This document shows positions 28,978 through 62,488 of a stretch of DNA of 64,000 nt, piece by piece. Source of the stretch: a virus. Within the stretch, counting starts at the first letter, position 1, and every line of letters starts with the position of its first letter. The notes under the pieces are model-generated. The model was not told where the DNA came from. It did no database searches and saw only the letters and a list, made by a program, of their open reading frames with translations. Position numbers and translations under genes: made by a program. Location: positions 19,748 through 83,747 of IMG/VR virus record IMGVR_UViG_3300030060_002972; one strand, given 5' to 3'.

Positions 28978-31188
28978 ATGGGAAGATTAACAGGTATAAA
29001 TTTAGGTCCACTTTCAATTAAATTTGATAGAGACAAAACAGCACAGCGTAAAAGTGATAGATTCAAAGCGCAAGATATTGTATCCAAACTTACTAGGGAT
29101 GCATTAAAAGGTGTTAATACTGATAGTACCAATAATATAATACGTAAAGGTATTGCAGATTTAGAATCAGGTAGTGATAAAATTATTAATAGTAAAAGAG
29201 ATTTGGGTACAAGTACCCTAACTACTAGTGGATTAGAAGGTGCTAATATTAAAGGTAGCACTACTTTAAGTGATGATGTTTTAACTCAAGCCAAAGAAGA
29301 CTCTGGAGGTTTTGTAGACGAAGCATCTAAGTTAGCCGTAGAAACTCACATAAAAAAATTAACTGATTTTAATAAAAATATTACTGAAAAAGAAAGAGTA
29401 GTAGCAGAAAATATAGACAATGTTATAAATCACCCGTCTGTAGGCGGCAGTGTTAAAACAATATTAGGCAATGAAAATATTACTGATACACAAAAAGTAG
29501 ATTACATATATGGATTAATAAATGATTTAGCATCTATTAAACCACAGAGTGAGAGAAGTAAAACTAGATTACAAGAAGCAGATAAAGCCTTAAATACCAC
29601 GTTAAAAAATAAAACTGTTCAAGATACATTTTTAGCGTTTAAACCAGCTGCAGGTGGTGGTTTCCAATTTGAAGCAAGTGATGGTTCTGCTATTACTTTC
29701 GGTAGTGATGAAAGGACGCCTTTACCTGGCATAGGTATGGGTGCCTATACTCCAGATGTAGCAGCTAGTCATACTTATATTGATAACAAAAGTTTGAAGT
29801 TAGATGAAGATTATCATTTTTTGGATAACACTGTTAGAGTTGCAGTGCCTGGCGACCCTACTGTAATAGAAACTAAAGATGACGGTACTCAAATAACATC
29901 ATCAGTAGAAGATTATATAGATTTTGATGGTCTAACATATAGTGCGTTATATCCTAAATATTTACGTACTAAATATGATGACAATTATACTGTAGAAGAT
30001 TTTAATAATGATGTTAGTCAATATATGAAAAGTCAAATTTTTGGCGGGTCTAGTGCAGATTATGATGACGAGTTAGCTAATACTATTGATGAGGCTATCG
30101 GTAACAGTATGGGTCAACAGCTGTATGACCAATTAGCATCTTTTGATGCAAATGCTAAAATAGGAGCATATAATAAATACAAAGAAGACGCTGGTGTAGG
30201 AGGTGGACTTGAAGCCTTAAACCAAATTAGGACAAAAGACGCTGAACGTATTACAGAAGATGCATTTTTCAGAATGTATGAAAAAGAACAAGAAGAAATG
30301 TACCGTGCAGGTTCAACCTATAGCTCGTATATGAAAGAACACAGAGTAGCATCACAAGATAAATTTTTACGTGCAGCATCTAGTCAATTTAGTGGATATA
30401 GACAAAGATTTAATGACATACTTAATAGATACGGAGATGATGACGGTAGTTTACACGACCAGCTTAGCAAAAAACTAGGTTATGACACAGAAGAATATTT
30501 TGAACATTTATTATTAAACGGAGATTTATCACAAATTCAAAACACCTTAATACAAATAGGTAGATTCTTAGAATTAGGTGATAATGAAAATGCTGATATG
30601 ATAAAATATATTATTGGTGATACAACTACATTTGGTAATTTTGTAAAACTTAGAGATAAAATCTACACAGATGATGCAAATACAATAAACCCAAACATAT
30701 CTGGTATGAAAGCCATGTTTGGCAACTTTGCTTCACTAAATAGAAGTCTTAATTTTTCTGGTGACGAAGTAATATTTGAAGATGTTAGACAAGAAATTAA
30801 AGGTGATAAGAAAACTTTGTTAGATGCTTTGTATAAAGAAGTAACTACAAATAGTAAACTAGGTAATTTAATTAGTGCTGTAGAAGAATCTTACACTCAA
30901 TCTGAGGGTAACGCATTTACTATAGGTGGTGCTGATGAGGTAGATGCACAAGATGCAGATGTATTAGCGGGACAAATTGCAGAGATAGATACAGAAACTA
31001 GTGAACTTAACGCTTCTAGTACAGAAGTAGCGTCTGTTGTTAACGCACTGTTACCAGATTTAGCTAGTGCTGGTATAGATGTAGATACATACTTAGAAGC
31101 TTTATTGGAAGATATGAAATATGTTGCAAGAGACAGAGCAAAATTTAAACGAGATATAATTAATCAATTAAACTTTGATTTAGGATAG
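28978..31188 (+). CDS. Putative ejection/internal virion protein
   Basis: 736 aa; middle member of a three-gene size series. Confidence 0.5.
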   Translation: MGRLTGINLGPLSIKFDRDKTAQRKSDRFKAQDIVSKLTRDALKGVNTDSTNNIIRKGIADLESGSDKIINSKRDLGTSTLTTSGLEGANIKGSTTLSDDVLTQAKEDSGGFVDEASKLAVETHIKKLTDFNKNITEKERVVAENIDNVINHPSVGGSVKTILGNENITDTQKVDYIYGLINDLASIKPQSERSKTRLQEADKALNTTLKNKTVQDTFLAFKPAAGGGFQFEASDGSAITFGSDERTPLPGIGMGAYTPDVAASHTYIDNKSLKLDEDYHFLDNTVRVAVPGDPTVIETKDDGTQITSSVEDYIDFDGLTYSALYPKYLRTKYDDNYTVEDFNNDVSQYMKSQIFGGSSADYDDELANTIDEAIGNSMGQQLYDQLASFDANAKIGAYNKYKEDAGVGGGLEALNQIRTKDAERITEDAFFRMYEKEQEEMYRAGSTYSSYMKEHRVASQDKFLRAASSQFSGYRQRFNDILNRYGDDDGSLHDQLSKKLGYDTEEYFEHLLLNGDLSQIQNTLIQIGRFLELGDNENADMIKYIIGDTTTFGNFVKLRDKIYTDDANTINPNISGMKAMFGNFASLNRSLNFSGDEVIFEDVRQEIKGDKKTLLDALYKEVTTNSKLGNLISAVEESYTQSEGNAFTIGGADEVDAQDADVLAGQIAEIDTETSELNASSTEVASVVNALLPDLASAGIDVDTYLEALLEDMKYVARDRAKFKRDIINQLNFDLG

Positions 31189-31195
31189 GTGTTAC

Positions 31196-34100
31196 TTGGG
31201 TATTAAAAAACAGTTAACTATAGACAAACTAAAAAATTACAAGAAGGTTCCTATAGGAGGACAGGATACTATTACTGCTCCTCAAGTAGATTTACAATCT
31301 ATAACACAAAATACTTTTAACAAATTAAATACTCAGAAACAAGAAGAAGAACTTAATACTGATTTAAACTTAGAGATTAACGCTCCTACTATAGTTAAAC
31401 CTGATACATATATTAGTGACAATGAATTAAATGCATCTAGTTTATTTAGTCTAGAAAATTTAGTTGGTAGAGAAAATAGTGATTATATAAATAACGCTAT
31501 AGACGAGTTTTTACCTAACTTTCATATTGACCCTGGAGAAATTATTTATGGGCGTAAAAATTCTTATGAAAATCCTACAGCAGCACAAGCATTTTATAAT
31601 GGTCTTATGCCTGGGCGTGACCGTGACATAGCAGATTTTGCAGAACGTGTAGAGTTTGCCAGAGCAAATGGTATTAATCCACTAGATACTTACATAGATA
31701 GTTTTATGTGGGGTTTAGGTGAAGCATTACAATTTTATGGATACTGGAGAATGTCAGGTGCGTTTGCAAAAAATCTATTAATACCAGCATTAACTCGTAT
31801 AGGTATATTAAGTAAAAGTAAACGTATTGCAGAATTAGGTGAAGGTACAGAAAAAGTTGTAAATAGATTACCTAAAGTATTACAACAAGATGCTAAGAAA
31901 TTTTTAACAGACAATAAATACAGACAACAATTAATAGGAACAATTGGCGTTGAATCAAGTATTGTAACGGCAGTAGAAGACGATATTGTAGACGGCATAT
32001 TGTACACTGTGGGTTATCCAGCTGCATTTAAGTACGGTTTTATTCCTGGATTCAAAGGGTTTATAGATGTTGCCGGTAAAGGGCTAACTAAGGTTGTAGA
32101 TAAAGGTAAAAATTTAGTTATTAAATCTCAAACAGAAGATGATATTCCTAAACCATTAAATAAAATTACATCACTAATACAAAAAGTATTAGATGGCACT
32201 CAAAAAGATGGTATAGAAAACTTGGGTACAAATACCCAAAAAGTTATTAAAGAGCTAGAAAATATTAGTGTTGAAGGACAAAAAAATTTAGGTGATTTAA
32301 TAAAAACATCTGCAGCATTACAAAATGATGTGCAAAAATTATTAAAAGTATTTAACACAAAAGTAGTAGGTATTATCAACAACATTGGTAACACTACAGC
32401 TACAAAAAATATTAAAGCATTACTAGATTCTCCTGACTTAAAAAATGGAGATTTTGAAACACTAATTAAATTTACAAAATTAATTGCTAATGAAAGCAAA
32501 CACGGGCATAAACAAAATAGAAAAAAATTCTTTGTTAGTGTGTTAGATGAAGCAGATGATATGCTAAGTAAGTTTGGTAATAGTGATGTAGCAACTATTG
32601 TAGCACCCGGCAAAATACCTTTAACTAAAGATAATTCAAGAATACTTTATAGTAAAATTAAAACTAAGTTACAAGATTTAGTTGGTCACACAAAAGGACA
32701 AGCTGCGGATGTAGATAGCACATTACGTCAAGCATTAGGTTTTAACACAAGTCAAAGCCCAGACGCTATATTCAAAAACTTATTGCATAAATTACAGGGA
32801 AAATTTGCAAACAAAGTAAATAAAAATTCTCAAACAGATTTAGGGACGTTGTTAAATTTAGCTAAAGAAAACCCTAAAGGCATAACAAAATTAATAGACA
32901 ATATATCAGCTCTTAATGACTACAAAAAATTTATATCAAATGAAACTTTTGATAACCAAAGTAGAAATTGGAAAAAATTAGTATACCACATAAAAAATGT
33001 ACAAGCTGTAACCGGCATGACCGGAGTTAAAAGAAAAATTAATAAAATCTTAGACACCAAAAGAGATTATAACAAGTTGTTTGATGTAGCCGGACGTAAA
33101 ACTAGTGAAGTTAAAATTCAAAAAGGTAAAAAAGGAAAAACAGAAACTGTTACTATTATAGAACAAGAAGATAGATTTGGTTATAAGCAAGACATTGCTA
33201 GAAAACAACGTCTTAGACAAGAGCTAGGCATACCTATTACTCGTTCAGTTAGTCTACGTCAGTTATTAAATCGTTCTCAGAAAGGGTTTACAAGAGAAGA
33301 ATATGATACAGCATTAACTTTATTGAGAAAAGAAATAGAAGAAGCAGGTCTATTGCCACAAGACTTAAGTAAAGAATTAGGTAGACAATTAACTAGACGT
33401 AATAGAATTAAACGTAGTGCATTTAATACAAGAGTAAGAAATGATTTAGCTAGTGATGAAGCATTAGATGAAATAGCACAGCGTTTTGTAGATGATATAC
33501 AAATAAAAGCAGAGATGGCTAAATATGGTATAGACCCTAGTATTGTTAACAGAAGTAGTTTAGACAAATTAACTAAACGTAAAAAACGATTAAGAGAATT
33601 ACATACAGATTTAAACAATCAGTTATTTAAGTCTAATACTAAAATACAAACTCACATCAACAAAATTGGCAGCATTGTAAATAAAATAAGTAACGGTAAA
33701 GAAACTCTGGCTATGTTAAACCCATTCAAAAACATACAAGAAATTAATCAGGGTATTAAATTTGTTAGTAGATACCAACAAGGGCAGTCTCTAGAAGTAG
33801 GTGACGGGTTAGCAAATGCAACTAAAATGTTTGCTGCCATGGAAAAAAATATTTCTAACACTATTAAAAGTGGTGCTCAAAATTCTAACAATTTGAACAA
33901 AGAATTCTTTAGGTTTATGAATGATTACCTAAATGAGAAAAACTTAAATACCCCTGAGTTACGTGACGTACAAGAAGTTATTGCCAGCGTATTAACTAGC
34001 GGGCGAACTACAGCAGAGATTAAAACTAAAGCAAGAACTGGTTTATACAAAACATTAGTAGCTCATGTGTATGATGATTTGCCTGGTATAGGACACATAC

Positions 34101-37100
34101 TGCAAGTTAGGGGTAAAAAAGAAGATGCTCAGTTTATTAAAAAACTAATTAGTGGTACAAAACAAGATAAAATAAAAGGTGCATATGAATTAACTAGACG
34201 AATTTTAACTGATGAACAATTAATGATGGATGTTATAAATAAAAATACACAAACACAAACATTATTTTTGTTAATGAAATCTATAGATAATCCTAAATTA
34301 AAACCTGTAGTAAAACAAATTTTGCAAGCAAACAAAACACAAACATCTGTAGTAGATTTATTACATAACATGGCTAAACAAGAAAACGCTACTAACAAAC
34401 CAAGCGTATCACTTACTAGCACTGGAGATACACGATTAGTTAATGAAGAATTACAAGACGCTACCGGTGGTGAAAGCGGTGTTATAAAACGTGTTTACAA
34501 TTATTTCTTTAAGGAATATCAACAAATAATGAGAGACAGTGGTTTTGAACCAGGTGTAGCTATACAAAAATTAGCATCTAATGCAGAACAATCATACACA
34601 AGAGAAGCTAGTAAAGGCGGATTAATAGAAACTACAGTATTAGAAGTAAAACAAAAATTAAAAAATACACTAGATGAAGTAAATAGTGGGTTAGCACCAG
34701 GCGCTGATAAATATACCAAAGATGATATTGATAATATTTTGGTTCAATTAGATAGATTAGCTAGTGGAGATAATGGTAAAGCAGCTGCAACTAAAATATT
34801 TAATGCGTTGCCAGGACCTGTACAAAGATATGTAGGTGAATATCATTCTACATTACGTAAAGCCTTGGAACGTTTTAATAGCAAAGTAGATGACATAAAT
34901 CTTATGGTAGAAAAAGGTGAAGTGTTTCCTGATACAGGTATAAATGTACCTTGGAAAGACCTTAGTCTAGAACGAGTTGACCCGTTAGATTTTTATTTTC
35001 CTAGATTTAGTAACGTAGAAAAAATGAACATAGAAAGATTTGATGTTTTTGCTACAATTAAATATGCAGACGGACACACTCAACGTGTACGTGTAGTTAA
35101 TGAAGCTGTAGATACCTTAGAAGATGTGCATAGAAAAATTATTGACCATGCAGATGTAGGTTTACCACCAGGAGCCGTATCATTAAATTACAATGTATCA
35201 CCTACACAACCATTGTTACGAAGTATTGACCAATACAATCCTACATCACAAGCACAGCAAGTTGTAGACGACATTGAAAATTTATTTCAAGTTGATTACA
35301 AAACCGTTAAGTCTGCATTAGACAAAGGCGGTTATAATTATCAAACTTTTTATAACGATGCGTTTATTGCTGGTCCAACATTTGCAAAACAAAGAACAGG
35401 TTTTGCTGCTAATTATGACACTGACCATTTAACAGTATTAAATACATATTTAATGAAAGAATCTAGATATAGAAATTTTATTGAACCTGTAATAAAACAT
35501 GACGCATTAAAAAGATACATGAAAGATACTCCGTTAGTAGATAAAAATGGCAACACTATGACAGGCACTATGGATTACGTTAGTCACATAGTAGATAACA
35601 TGTTAGGTAGACCACAACCAGCTACAGTTATGTTTAACAAATTACTACAAGGCATTATTAAAGGTGGCAAGTTATACAAAATACCTGGCATATCTAAGGA
35701 TGCTGATGTTAGAAGTTTCATAGATGCTAACTCTACATTTAACTATTATCTACAGTTTGCAGTAGACATACCAGCATCGTTAATACAAAGCACCATGGCA
35801 GTTACTTCTGTGTTACCGGCAGCGGGTAGGTATGCTTTTAGTATGCAACCTATGAAAGATGCTACAAATTTATTGTTAAGGTCATTAGTAAAAAATGACA
35901 GAGTTGCAAAAAATCCTATATTAAAACGTGTGCATAAAAGTTTCAAAAATAAATTAGATAAATTAGACACACAAACTAAACAAAAATATGATGACTTAGA
36001 ACAAGTATTTGTAGACATGAATCTTGAAATAGATAGTGCTCATGCTGTGCATATGGCAGACCAATATACAGCACAATTTGGTGTTGAAGCTAGTAATTTC
36101 TTAAAACGTAGCTATCACACAATAGGTAATGCTGTGACATATGCATTTAGAAAAGGTGATATTATCCCTAGACGTTTAGCTGCTACTTTAGCCTATGAAA
36201 ATGCCGATGCAGCTTTCAATAATGTTGCTAAAAAATTAAATAAAGCTGAAGTAGATTGGTTAGCTGGACCATTAAACACAGAAAAAGTTAGAAGTTTATT
36301 AAGACAAAAAGGTTTAACATTGAATCCATTGGAAGAAGAAACTATGAAACTTATGGTTAATTCTTCTAACCGTCAATACACTAATACTGGGCGTACTTAT
36401 GCAACTAAGACACAAGGTGCGTTTTACACTAAAGAAAAAGTAGGGATGCAATGGAAATACAAAGCTAACAGAAACTTTAAGAAAGATTTAGCTAAAAATT
36501 TTAGTGAAGAAACTAACCACAAATACAACTCAGCTAACAACACTGGATTTATGAATGAAGGATTGTTAAAAAACTTTAACTTGTACAAAAAATTTGCAGT
36601 AAAAGAATTTAGTAGGTTAGTGGGTTATGGTAAAAAAGGACAATACCCGGCACTAGCTGCTAGTCTGTTAGCGTATCAACAGATTGCAGGAAGTGTAGGA
36701 TTACCTTTTGCAAGAGACTTAAAACAATTATTAGAATGGGCATACTACGGGTCAGAAGTAATAGCTAAACCAAAAACAGAAGCTAATCCAGCTTTATTAG
36801 ATATGGAATCTAACTTAAGAGCCTATGCAGCAGACAGCCCACTAAGAAAATATGCGTTGTTTGGTCTTGCATCTACAGCGGGTATTGATTTAACACAAAG
36901 TGCATCTGTTAATATGGAAGGTTACTTTAGTCCAAGAACACCTATAAATGGATTTGGTGATGTTGTAGGTAATTTAGTGTTAGGAGATACTTATAGACGT
37001 ATGAAATCTATGTTTAATCGTATAGCTAACTTAAAATCACAAGGCAACTTATACGAACTAGGCGGAGAAACTGGATTACAAAAATACATTAGAGGTTTTG

Positions 37101-37648
37101 AGGCTGCGGCACCTTTTATTCCAATGGGTGAACAAGCAGTAGACGCCTTACAAGTAATCAACGGTATGCAACCTAGAGATTATAGTGGACGACTTATGGA
37201 TGTGTATGGTAGACAGGATGAGTTAAGCCAAGGTAACGAAGCTATACTAAAATTATTAGGATTTAATACTATGGATGAGGTATTATATAAACAAACATCT
37301 TCATTAATTAGTGGAAAAACTGGTAAAGAGTTAAGAGAAATAGACAAAATAAAACGAAGACATTTTGTTAATGATGCTTTTGGATTAATTACAGATTACA
37401 TAAATGCAACTAACGAAGGTGAAGTTGATGCAGAAGAAGTTGATGACATTATAGAAGAATTGTCTGAGATTGTCACTTATTTTGGTGGGGATAAACAACT
37501 GTTAAATGCTATGAATTATGCATTTGTGACAAACAATGTGCCTAGAGATATATTAAAATTAAAACGAGGCACAGCTAAACAGAAACAATTAATTATAAAC
37601 AACTTAGATATTTTATTACGCCAAACTAACAAAGGAGGACAAGACTAA
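31196..37648 (+). CDS. Large (2150 aa) putative ejection/internal virion protein
   Basis: Size and position; helical; no RNAP DxDGD motif seen. Confidence 0.55.
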   Translation: MGIKKQLTIDKLKNYKKVPIGGQDTITAPQVDLQSITQNTFNKLNTQKQEEELNTDLNLEINAPTIVKPDTYISDNELNASSLFSLENLVGRENSDYINNAIDEFLPNFHIDPGEIIYGRKNSYENPTAAQAFYNGLMPGRDRDIADFAERVEFARANGINPLDTYIDSFMWGLGEALQFYGYWRMSGAFAKNLLIPALTRIGILSKSKRIAELGEGTEKVVNRLPKVLQQDAKKFLTDNKYRQQLIGTIGVESSIVTAVEDDIVDGILYTVGYPAAFKYGFIPGFKGFIDVAGKGLTKVVDKGKNLVIKSQTEDDIPKPLNKITSLIQKVLDGTQKDGIENLGTNTQKVIKELENISVEGQKNLGDLIKTSAALQNDVQKLLKVFNTKVVGIINNIGNTTATKNIKALLDSPDLKNGDFETLIKFTKLIANESKHGHKQNRKKFFVSVLDEADDMLSKFGNSDVATIVAPGKIPLTKDNSRILYSKIKTKLQDLVGHTKGQAADVDSTLRQALGFNTSQSPDAIFKNLLHKLQGKFANKVNKNSQTDLGTLLNLAKENPKGITKLIDNISALNDYKKFISNETFDNQSRNWKKLVYHIKNVQAVTGMTGVKRKINKILDTKRDYNKLFDVAGRKTSEVKIQKGKKGKTETVTIIEQEDRFGYKQDIARKQRLRQELGIPITRSVSLRQLLNRSQKGFTREEYDTALTLLRKEIEEAGLLPQDLSKELGRQLTRRNRIKRSAFNTRVRNDLASDEALDEIAQRFVDDIQIKAEMAKYGIDPSIVNRSSLDKLTKRKKRLRELHTDLNNQLFKSNTKIQTHINKIGSIVNKISNGKETLAMLNPFKNIQEINQGIKFVSRYQQGQSLEVGDGLANATKMFAAMEKNISNTIKSGAQNSNNLNKEFFRFMNDYLNEKNLNTPELRDVQEVIASVLTSGRTTAEIKTKARTGLYKTLVAHVYDDLPGIGHILQVRGKKEDAQFIKKLISGTKQDKIKGAYELTRRILTDEQLMMDVINKNTQTQTLFLLMKSIDNPKLKPVVKQILQANKTQTSVVDLLHNMAKQENATNKPSVSLTSTGDTRLVNEELQDATGGESGVIKRVYNYFFKEYQQIMRDSGFEPGVAIQKLASNAEQSYTREASKGGLIETTVLEVKQKLKNTLDEVNSGLAPGADKYTKDDIDNILVQLDRLASGDNGKAAATKIFNALPGPVQRYVGEYHSTLRKALERFNSKVDDINLMVEKGEVFPDTGINVPWKDLSLERVDPLDFYFPRFSNVEKMNIERFDVFATIKYADGHTQRVRVVNEAVDTLEDVHRKIIDHADVGLPPGAVSLNYNVSPTQPLLRSIDQYNPTSQAQQVVDDIENLFQVDYKTVKSALDKGGYNYQTFYNDAFIAGPTFAKQRTGFAANYDTDHLTVLNTYLMKESRYRNFIEPVIKHDALKRYMKDTPLVDKNGNTMTGTMDYVSHIVDNMLGRPQPATVMFNKLLQGIIKGGKLYKIPGISKDADVRSFIDANSTFNYYLQFAVDIPASLIQSTMAVTSVLPAAGRYAFSMQPMKDATNLLLRSLVKNDRVAKNPILKRVHKSFKNKLDKLDTQTKQKYDDLEQVFVDMNLEIDSAHAVHMADQYTAQFGVEASNFLKRSYHTIGNAVTYAFRKGDIIPRRLAATLAYENADAAFNNVAKKLNKAEVDWLAGPLNTEKVRSLLRQKGLTLNPLEEETMKLMVNSSNRQYTNTGRTYATKTQGAFYTKEKVGMQWKYKANRNFKKDLAKNFSEETNHKYNSANNTGFMNEGLLKNFNLYKKFAVKEFSRLVGYGKKGQYPALAASLLAYQQIAGSVGLPFARDLKQLLEWAYYGSEVIAKPKTEANPALLDMESNLRAYAADSPLRKYALFGLASTAGIDLTQSASVNMEGYFSPRTPINGFGDVVGNLVLGDTYRRMKSMFNRIANLKSQGNLYELGGETGLQKYIRGFEAAAPFIPMGEQAVDALQVINGMQPRDYSGRLMDVYGRQDELSQGNEAILKLLGFNTMDEVLYKQTSSLISGKTGKELREIDKIKRRHFVNDAFGLITDYINATNEGEVDAEEVDDIIEELSEIVTYFGGDKQLLNAMNYAFVTNNVPRDILKLKRGTAKQKQLIINNLDILLRQTNKGGQD

Positions 37649-37842
37649 TGGAATTAATTTCACAATATGCACCGTGGTTATTAACAGGTGTATTGTCTAT
37701 AGCTGGATATTTGTTCAAAGGTAAATATGCACAACTTAAAGTGTGTGTTAAAACTTTTATTGATATGATAGAAGATGATAAAATTACACCTGAAGAAATG
37801 AAACAGTTTATGACTGAAGCAAAAAAACTTATAGGTAAATAA
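37648..37842 (+). CDS. Small membrane protein
   Basis: One TM segment followed by DDKITPEE. Confidence 0.6.
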   Translation: MELISQYAPWLLTGVLSIAGYLFKGKYAQLKVCVKTFIDMIEDDKITPEEMKQFMTEAKKLIGK

Positions 37843-37844
37843 TT

Positions 37845-38492
37845 ATGCGTGTACATATTTTAATATTATTAACATTATTGTTATTTGGATTAGTAGGTTG
37901 GGTCAAAGTATTTGCTACCGACAACAGCACATCTAACCAAACTAATACGTCTGGTTCAAACACCAGTATTAGTGGTGGGTACACATCTACTACTAACAAT
38001 ACGTACAGTGGTGGGCAAACCAACACGACCACTAACAGTACAACTAATAGTACAAAAAATAGTAAAATACCTGTAGGCACCGCTACTGCACCTAGTATGT
38101 CATCGTACAGTCAAGATTTATGTATTGTAGGCGTATCTGGTGGAGTGCAAGTCACCGGATTTGGGGTATCAGGTGGCACATATGTTACTGACGAGAATTG
38201 TGAACGAATGAAACTATCAAAACTTCTATATGATTTTAATATGCGAGTTGCATCAATCGCAATTCTCTGTCAGGACGATAGAGTATTTTCTGCTATGGAA
38301 CACGCAGGCACACCTTGCCCGTTTGAAGGTAAGATAGGAAAAGATGCAGAAGACCAATGGAAAAAATATGACGTAGAAAGACCTGACTACGACAAATATG
38401 TACAAAAATTAAAACGAAGAGCGGCTATAGACAAAGAAACAGAATTTGTACCTATAGACACGGAGTATGATTTATATGGAGACGATGATTAA
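37845..38492 (+). CDS. Secreted/membrane protein with Ser/Thr/Asn-rich linker and Cys-containing domain
   Basis: Signal-like N-terminus; TATAPS...DLC...DENCER...LCQD..VF..M...GTPCP. Confidence 0.7.
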   Translation: MRVHILILLTLLLFGLVGWVKVFATDNSTSNQTNTSGSNTSISGGYTSTTNNTYSGGQTNTTTNSTTNSTKNSKIPVGTATAPSMSSYSQDLCIVGVSGGVQVTGFGVSGGTYVTDENCERMKLSKLLYDFNMRVASIAILCQDDRVFSAMEHAGTPCPFEGKIGKDAEDQWKKYDVERPDYDKYVQKLKRRAAIDKETEFVPIDTEYDLYGDDD

Positions 38493-39858
38493 ATGTGGTT
38501 ACTTATTGTTAATTGCATTCTTGATAGCGTGGGCAGCAACCGCAGAAGAGATAACGACTGGAAACCTTTTGCCAAATGGTTCTGGAAACGCAAGTAACTA
38601 CCAATCTGTAGATAATACTATACCTAACGTAACAACTAATGGTTTTAATGTGGTTGGTAATGTTAGAGATTGGGGACAAGAATTAGAAACAACAGGTACA
38701 GGTAGTATTAATTACACTGGTAATTTAACTGACCATGCTACACAGCAACAATTAGACAATGGTATTAGATTAGATTCTACTACTATAGTACAAAACTGTG
38801 AGTGGGTAGGGTCTAATTGGCAGTGCGGACAAGCTAGAGCAGGTCAAGACACATATACTACTACCGTAAAAATATTAGATGATGAAGGTAATACATTAGC
38901 CATAGTAAATCAAACTAGAAATAATGACTCTGGGTATGGTGCAAACGCATACAAGTATGAAGATTCTGTTACATATACAGGTGCGGGCAGTAATCAATTT
39001 TACTGGGAATGGGAAGGTGTAGACGAAGGCAGTTATGTAAACTTAGGTGGACCTAATTTGCTTGGTGCAAAACTTACAATGACCTATGATGACACTGTAA
39101 TACCGGAAGAAACTATAGAAGAAATATATGAAGTTATAGAAGAATTTGAGGAATGGCAAGAGACATTTGTACCAGTAGAATTTATAGAAGAGTTTATTCC
39201 GTTACCTGTTTTAATAGAAAAATTTCCTATGTCAGTGTTAGAAGAAGAAATAGTTTTTGAAGAACTTAATGCTATTGAAGAAGAGTTTGAAGAAGTAGAA
39301 ATACTACAAGTATTTGGTGGACCTGAAATAGTAGAGGAACCAGAAGAAGAAGTTGTAGAAGAACCAACACCTACACAAGCTGCAATAGAACCTACACAAG
39401 AAGAAACTGAAACGGAAAGTGAACCACAAGAAGTAAATAATGAACCAGCGTTAGTAGTAGCTGAAGAACCAGAACAGGGTACAGTACCCGAAAAAACACC
39501 TAGTGTAAGTGTAGATAATATACAAGCAGAAGTAAGTGTGACAGTTAAAGAAGTAGATAAACAATTAGCTGTAGTTAACGTAGTAGCGGCTAAGATGATA
39601 GAAGATAAACAAGTAGATATTTCTAGTTATTACAAACAATACACAGATAACCGTGAGATTTATGATAGTCGTATCTATGAAGATTTGCGTATATTAGATA
39701 ATTATGATATACAAATATATAACAATAATAATAAATTTGTAGCTATATCTGTTAATGACCCTGTATTAAAATATCAAGTACAATTTCAGAAAGCTAGAAG
39801 TATACGTATACAAAAAGAAAAAGAATTAGAATATTTAAGGAGACAATATGCTAGATAA
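38467..39858 (+). CDS. Secreted/membrane protein with Glu-rich stalk
   Basis: Signal-like peptide, beta-rich domain, E/P-rich region. Confidence 0.7.
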   Translation: MIYMETMIKCGYLLLIAFLIAWAATAEEITTGNLLPNGSGNASNYQSVDNTIPNVTTNGFNVVGNVRDWGQELETTGTGSINYTGNLTDHATQQQLDNGIRLDSTTIVQNCEWVGSNWQCGQARAGQDTYTTTVKILDDEGNTLAIVNQTRNNDSGYGANAYKYEDSVTYTGAGSNQFYWEWEGVDEGSYVNLGGPNLLGAKLTMTYDDTVIPEETIEEIYEVIEEFEEWQETFVPVEFIEEFIPLPVLIEKFPMSVLEEEIVFEELNAIEEEFEEVEILQVFGGPEIVEEPEEEVVEEPTPTQAAIEPTQEETETESEPQEVNNEPALVVAEEPEQGTVPEKTPSVSVDNIQAEVSVTVKEVDKQLAVVNVVAAKMIEDKQVDISSYYKQYTDNREIYDSRIYEDLRILDNYDIQIYNNNNKFVAISVNDPVLKYQVQFQKARSIRIQKEKELEYLRRQYAR

Positions 39859-41385: not shown

Positions 41386-41627
41386 TGGACGAATACGGAA
41401 TGATAGAAAGTATGATTACAAATGTAGGTTTTCCTATAGCTGTAGCTTTCTTTGTTTTGTACAAACTAAATCAAAGTCTAGATAAACTACGTGGTAGTGT
41501 AGATAGATTATATGATTTAATGTCTGAAAAAGATGTAACTATGAAAGAACTAACTTTGAAAGTAGATTACTTAGAACGTGCTGTACATAGATACAATAGA
41601 AATAATAGGAAAAAACCCCACCAGTAA
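41385..41627 (+). CDS. YvrJ-like putative holin
   Basis: ITNVGFPIAVAFFVL TM segment plus coiled coil. Confidence 0.55.
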   Translation: MDEYGMIESMITNVGFPIAVAFFVLYKLNQSLDKLRGSVDRLYDLMSEKDVTMKELTLKVDYLERAVHRYNRNNRKKPHQ

Positions 41628-41637
41628 TTAGTGGGGT
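41610..41637 (-). terminator. Intrinsic terminator at the convergence of late and replication operons
   Basis: ACCCCAC-N9-GTGGGGT stem with an A-run on its left, i.e. a U-tract on the minus strand. Confidence 0.75.
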
Positions 41638-41671: not shown

Positions 41672-42160
41672 TTAATTAAGTGTTGACGTATCATCATCTG
41701 GATATGGGTCGTATAAACTTGGTAGTATTTCCTTAGAATATACTTCCCATGGCACTATACTTAAATCACAAGTATCATACCCTGCGTCTATAGACTCTTG
41801 TATAATTTTAATTTTAGTATTTGTTGCATCATTGTGTGTATCTACACGATTATATGTAATTCTGTTACGTATTAAACTTGTAGTTAAATCCTTAGGTAAC
41901 ATGTACGACATCATACTATTTATCATTTGAGAACAACGATTAAATATGTTATGATGGTACCCGTCAATAAAAATTAACTTAGCTTCTTCTAGTGCTATCA
42001 AAGCAATTAAACTAGGAAAATGTTTATCTTGCAATGAGGCATACCCTGGATTAACCATAAATTTTACGGTCTCACTTCTAATTAATTGAGGGTTAGAAAC
42101 AATAGACCAGTAGTTGTGTATGCTAAACACATCAGATAAATTACTAACTACTACTAACAT
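41672..42160 (-). CDS. Hypothetical protein
   Basis: Last gene of the minus operon; overlaps the upstream ORF. Confidence 0.65.
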   Translation of the reverse strand: MLVVVSNLSDVFSIHNYWSIVSNPQLIRSETVKFMVNPGYASLQDKHFPSLIALIALEEAKLIFIDGYHHNIFNRCSQMINSMMSYMLPKDLTTSLIRNRITYNRVDTHNDATNTKIKIIQESIDAGYDTCDLSIVPWEVYSKEILPSLYDPYPDDDTSTLN

Positions 42161-42713
42161 TCTCTTCTCCGGTATATAAGAATTTTTTGTACGCTTCTAA
42201 TACACTATTATGTATATCATCCCATTCACATGAGATACAAAAGAAATGAAATTTAGTTGGAAACATTGAACCTGGATGTTTAATTATATTATGCTGTAAT
42301 ATGTGCATAACAATATCAGGTATTAAATTATAATAAATACGTACTTTCATATTACACAAACGTTCTATCTTACCTATTGTAGGCAACTCTATCATACGAG
42401 TAGAGTCATGTAATAAATTTTTATAAGTCATTGTTAAATAACTTTCTTTTCTTAAATAAGCTATTTTTGTTTCGTTCAACCATTCATGAAATAGCACCGG
42501 AGATATTTCTTCAGGTATAAATCTAGACAACTGCAAAGGCAACCAGTTATTGTTAACTAAAGTCAATAGTTTACTTATCATTGTAATTCTACTGTCTTGA
42601 AACATGCTAGGCATTAACATGCCTGCACCAAACTTATCTTTGTACATTAAACAAATAACACCTAAACGTTGTAGTACAAGTAAATATTCTTTATTCACTA
42701 GTGCCCTCCGCAT
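42144..42713 (-). CDS. Hypothetical protein
   Basis: Operon position. Confidence 0.65.
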   Translation of the reverse strand: MRRALVNKEYLLVLQRLGVICLMYKDKFGAGMLMPSMFQDSRITMISKLLTLVNNNWLPLQLSRFIPEEISPVLFHEWLNETKIAYLRKESYLTMTYKNLLHDSTRMIELPTIGKIERLCNMKVRIYYNLIPDIVMHILQHNIIKHPGSMFPTKFHFFCISCEWDDIHNSVLEAYKKFLYTGEENVSSS

Positions 42714-43895: not shown

Positions 43896-43904
43896 ACAAA
43901 TCTC

Positions 43905-44177: not shown

Positions 44178-44187
44178 AAATGACCTC

Positions 44188-46402: not shown

Positions 46403-46403
46403 A

Positions 46404-47831: not shown

Positions 47832-47856
47832 TTAATCCTCCTCGGGTACCAGTACC

Positions 47857-48903: not shown

Positions 48904-48998
48904 TTGACACTCCTTTCTTTTGCATTGCCCTGTGTTGCCAAGGACTATTAGGCAGATAATCATTAGACTGCACTTCTTTATGTTTTGTCTGCCCTATA

Positions 48999-51900: not shown

Positions 51901-52137
51901 TTGGTCTGTGACTTCACGCCACTCACCTTTTACATTGACAAACCAAATGTCAGTGGCATAGACGGAGCCCATCTCGTCACAAAAGCCAATCTCTGAACCT
52001 TTGGTGTCTACAAGGATAGTTTTTTTGAGACCCTTTCCCTGTCTTGGTGATTCCATCAAGTACGATGTTACGGGGTCACCGAGTTGCACCGTCTTGAGTT
52101 TGTCACCTTTTTTCAGGTCTTTATATTGTACGCTCAT
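48999..52137 (-). other. Cluster of about 11 small early hypothetical genes (48999-49217, 49218-49550, 49516-49752, 49848-50105, 50074-50388, 50354-50560, 50675-50890, 50883-51104, 51193-51618, 51639-51926, 51892-52137)
   Basis: Tightly packed minus-strand ORFs, many with GGAG(G) RBS; mostly no counterparts in the early region of A. Confidence 0.65.
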
Positions 52138-52296
52138 TGCGTCACCTCACAGAATAAATTTCGGGTACAAGTACCCAATAAGCCGGCACTTGACACGATG
52201 GGATTACAAGTATAAACTACTAGTGACAACCACCTAGTTAATAAATACATAAGTGCTAGTACACACGATGAGTTAATACAAGTAATCATAAATCCT

Positions 52297-52324
52297 ATTA
52301 TAACATCTATGTTCATAAAGTCAA
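52297..52324 (-). promoter_or_regulatory. Early promoter TTGACT-N16-TATAAT with extended -10
   Basis: Minus strand TTGACTttatgaacatagaTGtTATAAT, upstream of the early cluster. Confidence 0.65.
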
Positions 52325-52471
52325 TACACAAATAATAATTACATTTCCTGTACACATCTTAAGTTTATTTTTGTACCCTCTTTGTACCTTGTTATTTTTT
52401 CCCTGTTAAAAAGTTATTATTGTAAAAGTTATTTTTTGGGTACGTGTACCCTAATCTTTTTCTTAGTTCTA

Positions 52472-52499
52472 TTTACTTAATCCGTTTTGATGATATAAT
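52472..52499 (+). promoter_or_regulatory. Extended -10 promoter (TGaTATAAT) for the orphan gene
   Basis: TTTACT-N16-TATAAT. Confidence 0.55.
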
Positions 52500-52544: not shown

Positions 52545-53237
52545 ATGGCTAAAGTAAAAGCGGGTACTAGTACCCAAACCACTAAATTAAATTCAAGGGC
52601 TGATTATATCAGTAACTATAAGGCGGAGATGGTAAACGGGATTATCAATAATTATAATTCCGCAAATCAATGCCTAGAGGATGCATTAAAGCACCGTATT
52701 GCTGTTGCACGTATTCTAGTAATCAATGAAAAAGAATATGATGTAATTGATGACAAAAAAGTTAAAGCAAACTTTAAGAAGTCGTGGCAGTTCGGCGCTA
52801 GCAATCCAGAAAAACTGAATGATAAAGCGCTAGAAAATTGGAATAAGAATTTTAAGAAATATATCAAGTCTTATAATTTCTTGAATGCTTGTTTCAAGCT
52901 ACGTAAATGGTTAACGGATGACGGCTTGGATATTGACCGTAAAAGGATTAAACAAGCTATGTTGTCTCCGCAAACTATTGCTAATATGACGGGCTCCAGA
53001 ACCTTAGGCGACGAGTTAGGCAAAAAAGTAGAGGGTCAAACCACTACTAAAGTTAAAGGTCCTAAAAAAGTTGACTATCAAAAACAGGTTGAAGAGTTTA
53101 AGCAACTTATAGAAAAAGGAATTAGTTCCGATGATGCCGATGGTATCGATGTTGATGGAGTTAAAATGATGCTATCTAGTATTCAAAACTTAATCAATAA
53201 ACGTGGAGTTAATTTTGTTACTTCAGTAATTAATTAA
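52545..53237 (+). CDS. Stand-alone basic hypothetical protein in the control region of B
   Basis: TAAGGA RBS before MAKVK; own promoter; flanked by a 12-bp inverted repeat. Confidence 0.75.
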   Translation: MAKVKAGTSTQTTKLNSRADYISNYKAEMVNGIINNYNSANQCLEDALKHRIAVARILVINEKEYDVIDDKKVKANFKKSWQFGASNPEKLNDKALENWNKNFKKYIKSYNFLNACFKLRKWLTDDGLDIDRKRIKQAMLSPQTIANMTGSRTLGDELGKKVEGQTTTKVKGPKKVDYQKQVEEFKQLIEKGISSDDADGIDVDGVKMMLSSIQNLINKRGVNFVTSVIN

Positions 53238-53595
53238 ATAAACATAAAAATCAAATCAAATAAAATCCACCGATACACACACAGAGAATTATATTTTTTG
53301 TAATCATTTTTTAACTAATTAATTTTTATACAATCTTCTTTTAAGTTCAAAACTTATGATCAAGAGTAATATTAAACAGTATTAAAAACATGTTTCTTTT
53401 TTCTTGGTCAAATTTTTTCTGTTGCCAGCTGACCCCCCGTGGGCGACCACCCACCCCCGTCATATATATAAATATACATAGGGTTTTTATTCATCTACCC
53501 ATTTTTACCCAAAAATTAAGGTACATGTACCCAACTATAATATGTAATGATTACAGGTACTTACAAATCCCCCACTAGTTACCCAAAAATAACAC

Positions 53596-54695: not shown

Positions 54696-54696
54696 A

Positions 54697-55339: not shown

Positions 55340-56860
55340 ATGATAAGAGACTGGTGGTACAAAGACCCTAAGATGTTAGCGTTGTGGCACAAGATACACA
55401 ATATGACACCAGAGGAATTAGATAATGTGGATAAAAAAATTATTCAAGAGTTACAATACTGGTATGGAAACTTATTTTTCTTTAATCCGTACCCTGCACA
55501 AAAGCCCATTGTGGACGATAATAATTTCAGTGTTTATGTACACGGTAATAATTCTAGTGGTAAGTCATATTGTAGCGCAGCTGTTACAGCTTATAACGTA
55601 ATAGGTTGGCATCCTAATCTAGAGATAGCTAAACCTAAATATGGTAATAGAATTATCTGGGCATTTAGTCCATCGTTTGATATACAACGTACTTCTAGTC
55701 AGGTGCATTTATTTTCTACAGATACTCCTAATGACATTGGGTTATTACCATCTATAGAAAGTATAGAAAAACGTGGGGGTAAAGTAGCCTGGGGTAAAAA
55801 TAGATGTATTGATTTTGTAAGATTTTGGGACGGTACAATCTTAGAATTTAAATCGGCTGAAATGAAAACGCAAAACCTTCAAGCCTCCGGTATTGACTTT
55901 TGCTGGTTTGATGAGTGTCCGTCCCAGACAATGCATGATGAGATTCTTGCTAGGTTGTTAAGAAAGTCTGGCAAAATGCTTATGAGTTTTATTGTAGAAG
56001 ATGCTACTAGTAATTATATTGTACAAGATATATATGGTAGGAACGAAGAAGATGAACATACTTCGTTTCATTTTATTGATGTATATGATAACCTATCCTT
56101 AGAGAAAGAAGAGATAGAAAGATATAAGAAAAGATTTACTGAGTCAGCTATGCACTGGAGATTTAGCCAAGGTGGTAAATTTCAATTGCAACCACAAGGT
56201 GCTATTGTATACCCTGACTTTAGTGAACAACACGTAGTGGACGATTTAACAGAACAGTATGACCCATTACGTACATTGTGGAGAGGTTGGGACCTAGGGT
56301 TTACACGTCCCGCATGTGTTGCTTTTCAAATAGATAAAAACGGCAACAAGAATGTTCTGTATTGTAAGATGGGTAAAAATATACAGCTAACTGATTTTAT
56401 AGATGAAGTTAATGCATACCAAAATGAGATAATGCCTGAAGTGCAAAGCACTATGGATTTGTTACCTCATGATGCTAATAGGAAATACGATGTGTCTCCT
56501 AACACTAGTGCAACAATATTTAAACGCAAAGGATTGCAAACAGATGTTGTTTATGTTAAAAGAGACACCAGTGTCGAATTAGCTAATGAAGAGTTAAAAG
56601 AATTTAGTGCGGGTATACCTAAAATTAAATTAGACTCTAAGCATTGTACACTTCTAATACAAGCATTGTCAGCATATACCCGTGAAGAACAAACAGGACA
56701 GCCAAGAAGAGATAAATATTTTGAACATGTAAGTGATGCGTTTAAACTAGGATTGTATTACATATCAAAAAAATTATTACAAACAGATTCGTTTGCACCG
56801 AATGAACCTAAATATTATTCTATGGATTTTGATGTAAACAAAGAGAGGTTACTAAATTGA
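55340..56860 (+). CDS. terL: Terminase large subunit
   Basis: GNNSSGKS, WFDE, WDLG, HVSDA. Confidence 0.9.
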   Translation: MIRDWWYKDPKMLALWHKIHNMTPEELDNVDKKIIQELQYWYGNLFFFNPYPAQKPIVDDNNFSVYVHGNNSSGKSYCSAAVTAYNVIGWHPNLEIAKPKYGNRIIWAFSPSFDIQRTSSQVHLFSTDTPNDIGLLPSIESIEKRGGKVAWGKNRCIDFVRFWDGTILEFKSAEMKTQNLQASGIDFCWFDECPSQTMHDEILARLLRKSGKMLMSFIVEDATSNYIVQDIYGRNEEDEHTSFHFIDVYDNLSLEKEEIERYKKRFTESAMHWRFSQGGKFQLQPQGAIVYPDFSEQHVVDDLTEQYDPLRTLWRGWDLGFTRPACVAFQIDKNGNKNVLYCKMGKNIQLTDFIDEVNAYQNEIMPEVQSTMDLLPHDANRKYDVSPNTSATIFKRKGLQTDVVYVKRDTSVELANEELKEFSAGIPKIKLDSKHCTLLIQALSAYTREEQTGQPRRDKYFEHVSDAFKLGLYYISKKLLQTDSFAPNEPKYYSMDFDVNKERLLN

Positions 56861-58620
56861 ACGAAAAAGATATAATCAAATTTCATTCACATATTAAAGC
56901 TGCAGCAACAGGCGAATATGATATGGCATCAGCAGAGTGGAAAGAGAACATGCGTTTCTACATGGATGAGTATAGTTTTAACAATAAGATAGATTGGCAA
57001 ACAAAAATCAAAGACCCTATAGTAGATAACTTAGTAGTTAGAATGTCTAACTATTTTGTACGTATACTAATGTCAACTGATAATAAATATTTTACTGTAG
57101 AACATCCTGACAAAAATGTACAAACTGGATTAAATAAATTATTAGAACAATCATTAATACAAAATAGATTTCCGTTAGTATTTGGTGATGCATTAAAAAT
57201 GGCATTACTAACTGCACCGTATATAACTAAAATTAATTATACATATACAGAAGAAACATACCCACAATTTAATGAAGAGAACGGAGAGATTGAACCGCAA
57301 AAAGAAACAGTGGGTAGAGTAAATATTAAACCTGTTAATCCATTTAATGTAATGATGGACCCTGACGGTAATAATTATATAATAGAAACAAAACGTTGTT
57401 CAGTCGCTGAGTATCAGTCTTTAGCTAGAGTGAACAATTGGAACAAAACAAAAACTATACTACAAGAGTCTGTTAACAAATCAGAGGGGGATGTTGATTA
57501 TGTCTCTGATGTTAAATTAGATTATGTATATAGTAAGTATATTTCGGATGCTCGTGGACAGGTCCTTGACGAGAATATACATTATGTAGTCGCTAATGAT
57601 AGACATATTGTATACTACGGTAAAAACAATTTACCAAACGGTGAATTTCCATATTGTGTGGGATTCCCAATGAAAGTATTACAAGGTCGTTATGGTAGGG
57701 GTTATATTACAAAATTAAGAAGCCTGCTTAGCTCATACGTAGAAAGTATGAATTTGTTGCTAGATGCATTTACAATTTCCACACTGGGCGTATATGAAGT
57801 TGTAACTGCCAACATAGAATCTGGCAAAGCCCATTTGTTTGGTAGCGTGGTGCCTGGACGTATGTATCCAGTCTCTGCTCCAAATACTATAAACCAGGTG
57901 TATAACAACGCATTAAACCCAAATGCCGTAAACCTATTATTTACAATAGACCGTTTGATTCAAAATAGGTCGTTTCAAAACGAGTTTTTTCAAGGACAAC
58001 CCACAAGTAAAGGTAGACCTACAGCGTCAGAGATAGCAACTAAAACACAAGAGACTTCTAGTTTCTTTACTGATATTGCCAGTGAGATAGAGAGAAGTAT
58101 TATAGAACCTTCATTACAAACGTTGCTACATACAGAACTGATGTACATGGATGACGATTTTCATGCACCGTTATTTACAGAAGATGAAACAGATAAAGCT
58201 GTTGTAACGTTGCTAGGCATGTCATTTAACGAACGTATGAAACTTGTAAAAGATGCAAGAATAAGAGTACGAGGAGTATCCGGTAAGGTAATGAAGATGA
58301 GTAACTTTAACAAACTAATGCAGATTGTTAATGTTATAGGCAATATGCCGAAAGTTGCAAATGCGGTAGACCCTACTAAATTTGTACAAAGAATCTTTGA
58401 GAGCTTTGATGAAGCGCCTGAAGATTTACTAAACATGGAGATGATAGAGAACGTCAATCAGCCAGAGGGTACTGTACCCGAAACTCCACAAGGTCCAGCA
58501 ATGCCAGGTGCGCCTGGTGGATTAAATGGTATGGGACAATCACCTGCAGGCAACGAACCACAACAACAATTAGAGGAGGTCTTAGCAAATGTCAGAAGAA
58601 ACCAAAGACAACAACAATGA
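56857..58620 (+). CDS. Portal protein
   Basis: Homolog of 15779-17491. Confidence 0.8.
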   Translation: MNEKDIIKFHSHIKAAATGEYDMASAEWKENMRFYMDEYSFNNKIDWQTKIKDPIVDNLVVRMSNYFVRILMSTDNKYFTVEHPDKNVQTGLNKLLEQSLIQNRFPLVFGDALKMALLTAPYITKINYTYTEETYPQFNEENGEIEPQKETVGRVNIKPVNPFNVMMDPDGNNYIIETKRCSVAEYQSLARVNNWNKTKTILQESVNKSEGDVDYVSDVKLDYVYSKYISDARGQVLDENIHYVVANDRHIVYYGKNNLPNGEFPYCVGFPMKVLQGRYGRGYITKLRSLLSSYVESMNLLLDAFTISTLGVYEVVTANIESGKAHLFGSVVPGRMYPVSAPNTINQVYNNALNPNAVNLLFTIDRLIQNRSFQNEFFQGQPTSKGRPTASEIATKTQETSSFFTDIASEIERSIIEPSLQTLLHTELMYMDDDFHAPLFTEDETDKAVVTLLGMSFNERMKLVKDARIRVRGVSGKVMKMSNFNKLMQIVNVIGNMPKVANAVDPTKFVQRIFESFDEAPEDLLNMEMIENVNQPEGTVPETPQGPAMPGAPGGLNGMGQSPAGNEPQQQLEEVLANVRRNQRQQQ

Positions 58621-60058: not shown

Positions 60059-60071
60059 GAGGTAAAATAAC

Positions 60072-62054: not shown

Positions 62055-62062
62055 GAGGATAC

Positions 62063-62464
62063 ATGGCAAACGCAATATACCCAGCAGCTAAAGATTCGTT
62101 TCTTAAAGGTGAAATAGATTTAATAGATGATACAATTAAAATTGCTCTGGTAGATACAGGTACTTATACCTATAATGCAGCACATGATTTTTATAATGAT
62201 TTGTCTGGTGTTATCGGTACACCAGTAGCATTAGGTAGTAAGACTGTATCATCAGGGGTATTTGATGCAGCAGATGCAACATTTACCACACCATCATCAG
62301 GTACATCTGTAGAAGCATTAATTATCTACAAAGATACAGGTAATACAGCTACAAGTAATTTAATTGCATACATTGATACAGGAACAGGATTACCATTTAC
62401 AACTAACGGAGCAGATGTAGATATAGTCTTTGATTCAGGTAGTAACAAAATTTTTGCATTATAG
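62063..62464 (+). CDS. Virion structural protein
   Basis: Homolog of 20628-21029. Confidence 0.6.
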   Translation: MANAIYPAAKDSFLKGEIDLIDDTIKIALVDTGTYTYNAAHDFYNDLSGVIGTPVALGSKTVSSGVFDAADATFTTPSSGTSVEALIIYKDTGNTATSNLIAYIDTGTGLPFTTNGADVDIVFDSGSNKIFAL

Positions 62465-62488
62465 GGTACACGTACCCGAGGAGTTAGC

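Follow-up and report, generated by a model that had tools for sequence, protein, structure and literature searches.

Short inverted repeats with lineage-specific spelling and a co-varying orphan gene in uncultured marine phages

Introduction

The nearest described counterpart of the repeats reported here, a family of GGGTAC-N1-3-GTACCC inverted repeats in a 64,000-nucleotide window (bases 19748-83747) of the 83,747-base IMG/VR virus record IMGVR_UViG_3300030060_002972, is the dyad repeat of the Cluster O mycobacteriophages, to which our family stands as an analogue and not as a member. The Cluster O repeat, 5'-TGTTCGGNNNCCGAACA, is 17 bp long (7-3-7), the arms being invariant and the three central bases free (PMC4351075). 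It occurs in more than 30 copies per genome, is denser toward one end and lies in coding sequence in about one third of cases; the phages are not obviously temperate, and the authors predict a dimeric DNA-binding protein (PMC4351075). Their description of the repeat names no reader gene and gives its function as unknown (PMC4351075). Our repeats share with it the invariant inverted arms, the short free spacer and the occurrence of many copies in both intergenic and coding DNA, and the relatives that we call G2 and G3 below also have a 7-3-7 or 6-3-6 geometry. They differ from it in that TGTTCGG/CCGAACA is absent, the phage is an unrelated marine one of different host and lineage, the copies are fewer (5-17), and the genome that carries them in our record, unit B, has arms of only 5-6 bp with variable spacing. 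Furthermore, the spelling of the repeat here differs between close relatives, by concerted symmetric changes, and a candidate reader can be named by co-variation.

Two other described systems invite comparison. The stoperators of Cluster A phages are many dispersed repressor sites, mostly in short intergenic gaps, that block elongation, and immune specificities evolve in these phages (PMC9283540, PMC6550527); the sites are asymmetric and are read by a monomeric two-domain repressor (PMC9283540). The repeats of unit B are likewise dispersed copies of one short site, 8 of the 17 outside called genes. Stoperators are 13 bp long, are oriented with transcription and co-evolve with the repressor, and Cluster A phages are temperate. 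The unit B sites, in contrast, are perfect dyads with unconserved centers, and the protein proposed to read them is predicted to be a dimer and shows no detectable homology to known repressors, the gp71-type helix-turn-helix repressor included; no integrase or known repressor family was found among the open reading frames (ORFs) scanned. Cluster K phages carry SAS and ESAS, conserved short repeats directly upstream of the starts of a subset of genes, for which the source gives no known function and names no reader; ESAS is an inverted repeat with a variable spacer and a consensus that differs between subclusters (PMC3203893). Of the 17 unit B sites, six precede a ribosome-binding site (RBS), five of them by 0-2 nt and one, in the early leader, by 14 nt; the unit B element is a compact perfect dyad that is also found in coding sequence and in promoter-upstream DNA. 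SAS is an asymmetric 13-mer that includes the RBS, and the arms of ESAS are 17 bp long and imperfect. By sequence, symmetry and protein family, the unit B system thus falls outside those of Clusters O, K and A.

A last point of comparison is phage T7, whose 40-kb genome has about ten RNase III sites, intercistronic hairpins mostly of the early operon that lie just before the next RBS; these are long and irregular, share no spelling and are read by a host enzyme. Unit B likewise has hairpin-capable sites between early cistrons before an RBS, but in its clade the stems are 5-7 bp long and identical within a genome.

Here we show that the repeats are strongly enriched, that they are placed preferentially in the early arm and control region, that their spelling is lineage-specific and changes symmetrically and in concert, and that it co-varies with the alleles of a gene in a variable slot between the two operons. 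Relative to what is described for the repeats of Clusters O and K, the natural specificity variants on close backbones, the single symmetric base-pair switch and the nameable candidate reader are new.

Results

The record consists of two related ~41-kb genomes in head-to-tail join, as revealed by self-BLAST: genome positions 5-218 repeat as 42973-43188, and 42284-42759 as 83272-83747. Unit A spans genome positions 1-~42760 (window 1-~23013) and unit B window positions ~23013-64000 (all coordinates below are those of the window unless called genome positions); the two are collinear in blocks of 65-92% identity. In each, a single control region separates two divergent operons, an early/replication operon that runs leftward and a late operon that runs rightward. 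All 12 perfect copies of GGGTAC-N1-3-GTACCC that a preliminary description of this DNA had listed are present where it placed them, as are its five near-perfect copies, each with one mismatch. The number is far above chance, as had been supposed: 0.01 copies are expected by dinucleotide shuffling, and none of 100 shuffles reached 12. Wholly within called genes there are seven perfect sites, whereas 300 synonymous-codon shuffles gave 0.06 on average. The preliminary description had, however, called the pattern genome-wide, and this does not hold in the literal sense, since all 17 copies are confined to unit B. Its observation that unit A lacks the motif extends to near-perfect copies and to the 19.7 kb that precede the window, and in unit A no other short inverted repeat reaches a comparable enrichment.

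When the variants in unit B and its closest relative are compared, the invariant core is GGGTA-N3-5-TACCC, the sixth, C:G stem pair being frequently broken. Site by site, the arms in unit B are 5-6 bp long and the spacer is 1-5 nt; the loops hold no conserved sequence and the flanks are unconserved across sites. The earlier suggestion of tolerant, hairpin-like recognition is compatible with this variable spacing, the spacing itself being corrected to 3-5 nt around the GGGTA/TACCC core. The coding copies are in frame and arose by substitution rather than insertion. As possible intrinsic terminators (a GC stem with a U-run), only 3 sites were flagged out of the 12 perfect ones (17 if near copies are counted), and these weakly; the sites are not of terminator type.

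Around 95 further loci, designated by L numbers, were gathered via TerL and helicase. Every long-enough contig with a helicase at least 62% identical to that of unit B has an enriched GC-rich dyad, and relatives with ~80% identical terminase have different stems at equivalent positions. Within one genome a single stem serves all copies, whereas between relatives the stem changes and the place and its flanks stay. The stem is GGGTA-N3-5-TACCC in the closest relative (contig 3300020439_000089, 13 core copies), (C)GGGT-N4-6-ACCC(G) in L013, L044 and L051-53, GTCGGGA-N3-TCCCGAC in L010, L078 and the L072 group, GTCGGTA-N3-TACCGAC in L046 and L077, and GCGGGA-N3-TCCCGC in L020 and L026-29. The relatives' arms are 6-7 bp long and their spacer 3 nt (7-3-7 or 6-3-6 in G2/G3). 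Between L010 and L046, which are 89-92% identical, the same symmetric G:C to T:A change is found at 4 of 4 sites with conserved flanks, which argues for sequence-specific reading of both arms. A per-gene comparison of these two did not discriminate a determinant of the specificity, many proteins being different. In two near-complete genomes of the GCGGGA type (G3), 6 of 6 and 5 of 5 sites fall in the early arm or control region, and ~70% of the genome is free of sites.

The same conservation of place is seen inside a gene. In PolA, three motif lineages have a site at one and the same alignment column, which falls in a variable loop of the N-terminal domain; the spelling is that of the respective lineage, the in-frame residues are x-G-x-x-P, and L051-53 have an imperfect copy. 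A common column with differing spelling argues that the position is kept at the nucleic-acid level. To describe the PolA sites as lying at the same distance from the ORF start would be misleading, for the aligned site of unit B and L050 lies 41 columns downstream of the column used by the other lineages. The shared column is also one of the conserved places at which an asymmetric variant of the G1b spelling, CGGTTAC-N-GTACCCG with a T.C stem mismatch, recurs (L052 positions 2942, 13040 and 18204; L053 positions 2996, 13038 and 18225; L051 positions 5100 and 10264).

The clade with ~47% identical helicase, which includes unit A, is without these GC-rich dyads. Two of its members have a different element, TTACGCA-N3-TGCGTAA, in 3-4 copies each (L088 positions 376, 3752 and 9398; L089 positions 1545, 2574, 6955 and 8494), one copy per contig lying 5-7 nt ahead of an RBS. 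Unit A itself has a family of four long hairpins at 10761-11773, with stems of up to ~15 bp and a GUA triloop on the minus strand; three of the four have a bulge or internal loop, and three sit 19-43 nt before the first leftward genes. Their arrangement is analogous to that of the unit B dyads, and the element is different.

The two operons are separated by a variable gene, 190-290 aa in length, which we refer to as the slot gene. In unit B it is an orphan (52545-53237, + strand) that encodes an all-helical protein of 230 aa with a pI of 9.5, a predicted homodimer and our candidate reader. The G1 type of slot comprises this orphan, L005 (62% identical), L013 and L044 (29-35%) and, among 1.8 billion proteins, six representative clusters; a scan of IMG/VR with the G1 alignment returned only the three contigs already known. 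L010 and L046 have the G2 type, and L020 and L026-29 the G3 type, with L072 as an outlier (25-31% identical). An unrelated slot gene, G4, is found in L018 and L027 without a GC-rich dyad, and in unit A the slot is empty and the motif absent. The spelling goes with the slot type: GGGTA..TACCC in G1a, CGGGT..ACCCG in G1b, GTCGG(G/T)A in G2 and GCGGGA in G3. The link between sites and orphan put forward in the preliminary description is thereby supported by the comparison of relatives. The sole IMG/VR contig with a close homologue of the orphan (62%) shares both the motif and its places, more distant homologues go with a related motif, a different slot gene goes with a different dyad, and unit A has neither.

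The strongest point for the link between slot and spelling comes from comparing the sequences of L072 and G3. The two are 94% identical in the helicase, 95-96% in TerL, 88% in PolA and mostly 75-96% in other proteins, and their early promoter and leader are 100% identical over ~110 nt. Their slot proteins are only 25-31% identical, no other syntenic gene being as divergent, and not one site has the same stem in both (GTCGGGA versus xGCGGGA).

The slot cassette is inverted between lineages, being rightward in G1 and leftward in G2/G3. In every lineage examined a site nevertheless lies 60-125 nt before the slot start codon (imperfect in L044). It is located 20-25 nt before the predicted -35 and hence outside the predicted transcript, which favors DNA as the level of action. 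A further perfect site follows the slot stop codon in G2, G3 and L072, and unit B has a one-mismatch copy (53519-53532) 282 nt downstream of that codon. The G3 slot gene has its own intrinsic terminator.

The slot protein of unit B is basic, as had been noted, with 32 Lys. Its N-domain is predicted to be helical and to be joined by a disordered, Lys-rich linker to a pair of helices at the C terminus. Sequence searches of Pfam, PHROGs, NCBIfam and the PDB gave no match, and family searches gave no HUH or transposase signature. The structure prediction suggested in the preliminary description yielded an AF2 model with a pLDDT of 61 (core ~80) that has no Foldseek match and only generic helical matches VIA-wide (Z up to 6.7). 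The model of the L072-type protein (pLDDT 75.7) likewise has no Foldseek match, and the ESM Atlas offers unnamed viral clusters only. Leads at 0.80 to DUF3102 and to Streptomyces phage repressor c were too weak to be usable. The G1, G2 and G3 slot proteins have in common an ENW(N/D) motif that is followed ~50-60 residues on by an N-(L/M)-(G/T) turn. The slot protein is predicted to form a symmetric homodimer, with an ipSAE of 0.79 as against 0.00 for the best control; the runs, for which our own alignment served as input, have at least 39% of contacts in common and a partner pLDDT of at least 68. Among proteins solved as one-chain pairs 20 of 30 reach the mark, among those solved as single chains 1 of 23.

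Nine of the 17 sites of unit B lie within genes, and eight lie in gaps, leader or promoter-upstream DNA; 8 of the 12 perfect ones fall in the early arm and control region, which make up ~27% of the genome. The site nearest to the orphan promoter (52438-52451) lies between divergent promoters and, as had been pointed out, just upstream of the rightward sigma-70-like promoter ahead of the orphan (52472-52499, + strand; 10 of 12 consensus positions, with TG), ending 20 nt before its -35. The companion site in the first codons of the orphan was also correctly placed: 52562-52575 covers codons 6-10 of the gene, whose ATG is at 52545. The leftward early promoter (52297-52324, - strand) is likewise sigma-70-like, TTGACT-16-TATAAT with TG (11 of 12), and is conserved in G1 relatives. 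The perfect site at 52163-52176 lies in the 5' leader of the early operon, ~115 nt past the predicted start and 14 nt before the RBS of the first early gene (51892-52137). In L057, L058 (6460-6575), L059 and L072, genomes that otherwise differ by 5-25%, the early promoter and an AT-rich leader of ~80 nt with ACTAGT/TAGTA repeats are 100% identical, which suggests a strongly constrained leader element; its unit B equivalent lies at ~52177-52324.

Most sites lie within the leftward early/replication operon (41672-52137, - strand). Going leftward from the leader, the near-perfect copy at 51627-51639 lies in the gap between genes 51639-51926 and 51193-51618 (both - strand), and the perfect 13-mer at 51317-51329 within the latter ORF. 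Three sites then precede an RBS on the minus strand: 50575-50588, 1 nt ahead of that of a 68-aa gene (50354-50560); the near-perfect 49503-49516, directly before that of a 90-aa gene (~49218-49490); and 47844-47857, which lies in the gap from the stop of the DnaB-like helicase gene (47857-48963, - strand) to the RBS (GAGGAGG) of a 60-aa gene (47649-47831). Together with 62464-62477 on the plus strand, directly before the RBS (GAGGAG) of a late gene that starts near 62489, and with the leader site, these are the individually placed RBS-preceding sites, all except the leader site lying 0-2 nt away; by the overall count, six of the 17 sites lie 0-25 nt before an RBS, on the sense strand. Equivalent RBS-preceding sites are found in every relative, mostly 0-2 nt away and at 9-22 nt in the leader and some other places.

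Further along the early operon, perfect 15-mers lie within the genes for PolA (45821-45835 in 44188-46251, - strand), in the N-terminal domain ahead of the exonuclease domain, and for a PD-(D/E)XK nuclease (43329-43343 in 43071-43895, - strand), the latter kept in L005 and L051. In the late arm the portal gene (56857-58620) holds a perfect site at 58467-58479, which is kept in the G1a/G1b relatives L005, L012, L013 and L043 and, with its own spelling, in L044. The peptides reported for these three genes were confirmed (PolA F-R-G-T-L-Y-P, nuclease LGYNVP, portal EGTVP), and unit A has different residues at all three. The remaining coding copies are a perfect 14-mer at 29205-29218 within a 736-aa late gene (28978-31188), a perfect 13-mer at 39477-39489 within a 463-aa late gene (38467-39858), and near-perfect copies at 25659-25672 within gene 24379-25824 and at 32224-32237 within a gene for a 2150-aa protein.

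Successive spacings from 29205 are 10272, 3852, 2492, 2023, 1659, 1072, 742, 310, 536, 275 and 124 nt, and beyond the densest point 957, 4948 and 3997 nt, with near-perfect copies counted and 32224 omitted; if the latter is included, the first interval (29205-39477) splits into 3019 and 7253. The shrinking spacing that the preliminary description emphasized is therefore real along the leftward early operon, but the late arm has no gradient. It is largely explained by the fact that the sites sit between early-operon genes that shorten toward the promoter.

Discussion

A cognate, symmetric, sequence-specific reader is what the single spelling per genome, the concerted symmetric changes, the fixed places and the co-variation with the slot jointly suggest. 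We tentatively favor the interpretation, which may well be correct even though it leaves ample room for doubt, that the repeats are the cognate sites of a two-fold symmetric phage regulator, putatively the slot protein, that controls the early operon; if such a regulator exists, the slot product is most probably it. According to this model, the slot protein would be expressed from its own sigma-70-type promoter and, by way of the site upstream of that promoter and the site in its first codons, would regulate its own synthesis. The dimer would also occupy the dyads of the leftward early operon, whether these lie in the leader, in short stretches ahead of an RBS or inside some genes, and could there serve as a roadblock or operator on DNA and so tune or shut off early expression; less probably, it would clamp the equivalent mRNA hairpin beside the RBS. 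Drift of its specificity between lineages would be accompanied by a corresponding re-spelling of all sites of a genome. Binding by the slot protein, action on DNA and repression are what we infer from the pattern of sites.

Action on DNA seems more likely than action on RNA because one site per lineage precedes a predicted promoter and because sites occur within essential genes of both arms. A weaker point in the same direction is that imperfect pairs in the stems are nearly always A.C on the mRNA strand. Over all B-clade loci this applies to ~13 of 14 such pairs, the template strand having G.T; the pairs cannot be counted as independent cases, and the bias could stem from mutation or hint at a DNA hairpin on the template strand. 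A parS-like role, which the preliminary description had considered, is unsupported, as neither ParA nor ParB is present.

Several observations weigh against a slot-encoded DNA-binding regulator. Homology between the G1, G2 and G3 slot proteins is unproven, with hhalign E-values of 0.0026 at best (G2-G3) and of 0.02-0.2 between G1 and the others; L072 and G2 have the same dyad and slot proteins without detectable similarity; and no DNA- or RNA-binding fold is recognizable in the slot protein from predicted models and family searches. Every B-clade contig that spans the slot carries both gene and sites, so that their co-occurrence is confounded with descent and only the co-variation in spelling separates the two. 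Other early genes vary as well. Between L072 and G3, identity is 58-60% for the 60-aa product of a gene located after a site; between lineages, it is ~40% for the primase. Either of them could be the reader instead. Moreover, the spacing of the arms varies by 2 bp (3-5 nt) within the unit B lineage, a latitude that a dimer binding rigidly to duplex DNA would not easily accommodate, and many sites adjoin an RBS, which is equally compatible with a role of RNA. Finally, the promoters are predictions from consensus matches.

A bolder extension of the slot-regulator model, which we regard as rather doubtful, holds that orphan-fold dimer and 5-17 dyads form an exchangeable specificity module that acts as an immunity-like, kin-discriminating early switch in apparently lytic, uncultured marine phages. 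A shift in specificity would then entail the re-spelling of all sites, including the fixed positions in the coding sequence of polymerase, nuclease and portal, and the outcome would amount to stoperator logic without lysogeny. This would account for the slot gene being the fastest-evolving gene of the backbone. If the slot-regulator model is true, it would add a fold to those known to bind DNA or RNA, supply a set of orthogonal protein-site pairs and show by example how a whole regulon, coding sequence included, is re-spelled during specificity drift. The question is directly testable with a few proteins and oligonucleotides.

Among the alternatives a serious rival, though in our view unlikely, is that the repeats work as RNA hairpins with a 5-7 bp stem and a 3-5 nt loop 5' of an RBS. 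They would be lineage-specific signals for processing, stability or translational control, read by the slot protein, another phage protein or a nuclease, by analogy with the intercistronic RNase III sites of T7 and the operators of phage translational repressors. The sense-strand sites before an RBS in unit B and their equivalents in every relative are consistent with such hairpins, and an invariant stem with a variable, unconserved loop is natural for them; as RNA, the stems have folding energies of -4 to -10 kcal/mol, and in unit A the longer hairpins lie 19-43 nt upstream of the first leftward genes. However, in each lineage examined the site upstream of the predicted slot promoter (imperfect in L044) is predicted not to be transcribed, and sites in PolA, nuclease, portal and tail genes would cause essential mRNAs to be cut or clamped. 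The predominance of A.C on the mRNA strand (~13 of 14 imperfect pairs) is the opposite of what an mRNA hairpin would lead one to expect, subject to the non-independence of the cases, and RNase III needs longer stems than 5-7 bp.

It is less probable still that a host factor reads the dyads, or that structure alone matters, the spelling reflecting host or restriction differences and the slot gene being a mere hypervariable neighbor. The stems are indeed graded around a common GG core (GGGTA, CGGTA, CGGGA, GCGGGA), the slot protein has no visible binding fold, and G2 and L072 combine the same dyad with dissimilar slot proteins. A purely structural role, though, leaves the single spelling per genome unexplained. 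In addition, the near-isogenic L072 and G3, with promoter and leader 100% identical, change spelling together with the slot allele, and unit A, in the same record, is without gene and motif.

We consider it improbable that the repeats are single-stranded DNA hairpin signals for phage replication, that is, elements of an origin or of primase or helicase loading. In keeping with this idea, sites cluster in the replication module, a palindrome is functional on either strand, the one-strand G.T bias hints at a DNA hairpin, and the Zn-ribbon primase (46404-47144, - strand, in unit B) diverges far beyond the adjacent helicase. The primase is 39-44% identical between lineages as against 67-68% for the helicase, an unusually fast evolution. 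Priming sites would, however, be expected to be spread over the genome instead of crowding within 1 kb around the promoter region and before RBSs, the G3 genomes are siteless over ~70% of their length, and the flanking of the slot gene is left unexplained.

Hairpin promoters of the N4 type, for a phage RNA polymerase carried in the virion, are very improbable. The early promoters of N4 have a hairpin with a 5-7 bp stem and a 3-nt loop, a geometry that our sites match; the best terminase matches include N4-like phages, at only 22-25% identity, and a 2150-aa virion protein is present. That protein, however, has no polymerase motifs and no match in Pfam, PHROG or PDB sequence searches, its nearest Atlas clusters being of the LPD39/LPD38 kind. 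Perfect palindromes with unconserved loops and flanks, moreover, give no direction to transcription, and good, conserved sigma-70-type early promoters are available. Miniature mobile palindromes of the REP/RAYT-like or MITE-like kind, spread by the neighboring gene, can scarcely be entertained despite copies that flank the slot gene and a cassette found in both orientations, because the coding copies are in frame and arose by substitution and not insertion, places are conserved where spellings differ, the elements are 13-15 nt long without target duplications, and the slot protein has no HUH (HUH-Y1) or transposase signature.

Other features of the record

Relatives of these phages are frequent in marine metagenomes, and no close cultured phage was found, the best TerL, PolA and capsid matches being 22-29% identical. 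The end of the early arm of unit B converges with that of the late arm at a likely terminator, a 9-bp GC-rich hairpin with a T-run at 41615-41637. The join of units A and B near 23013 may be an assembly artefact at a common tail-fiber cassette, because in the probable source run the region 21500-24500 is covered by short Logan contigs only, which have loose ends at 22600-22607 and 23123. Each unit encodes a giant virion protein, of 2150 aa in unit B (31196-37648) and ~2265 aa in unit A (genome positions 8418-15219), between which BLASTP finds no similarity; the clusters nearest to the former in the Atlas have LPD39/LPD38 'polyvalent protein' domains.

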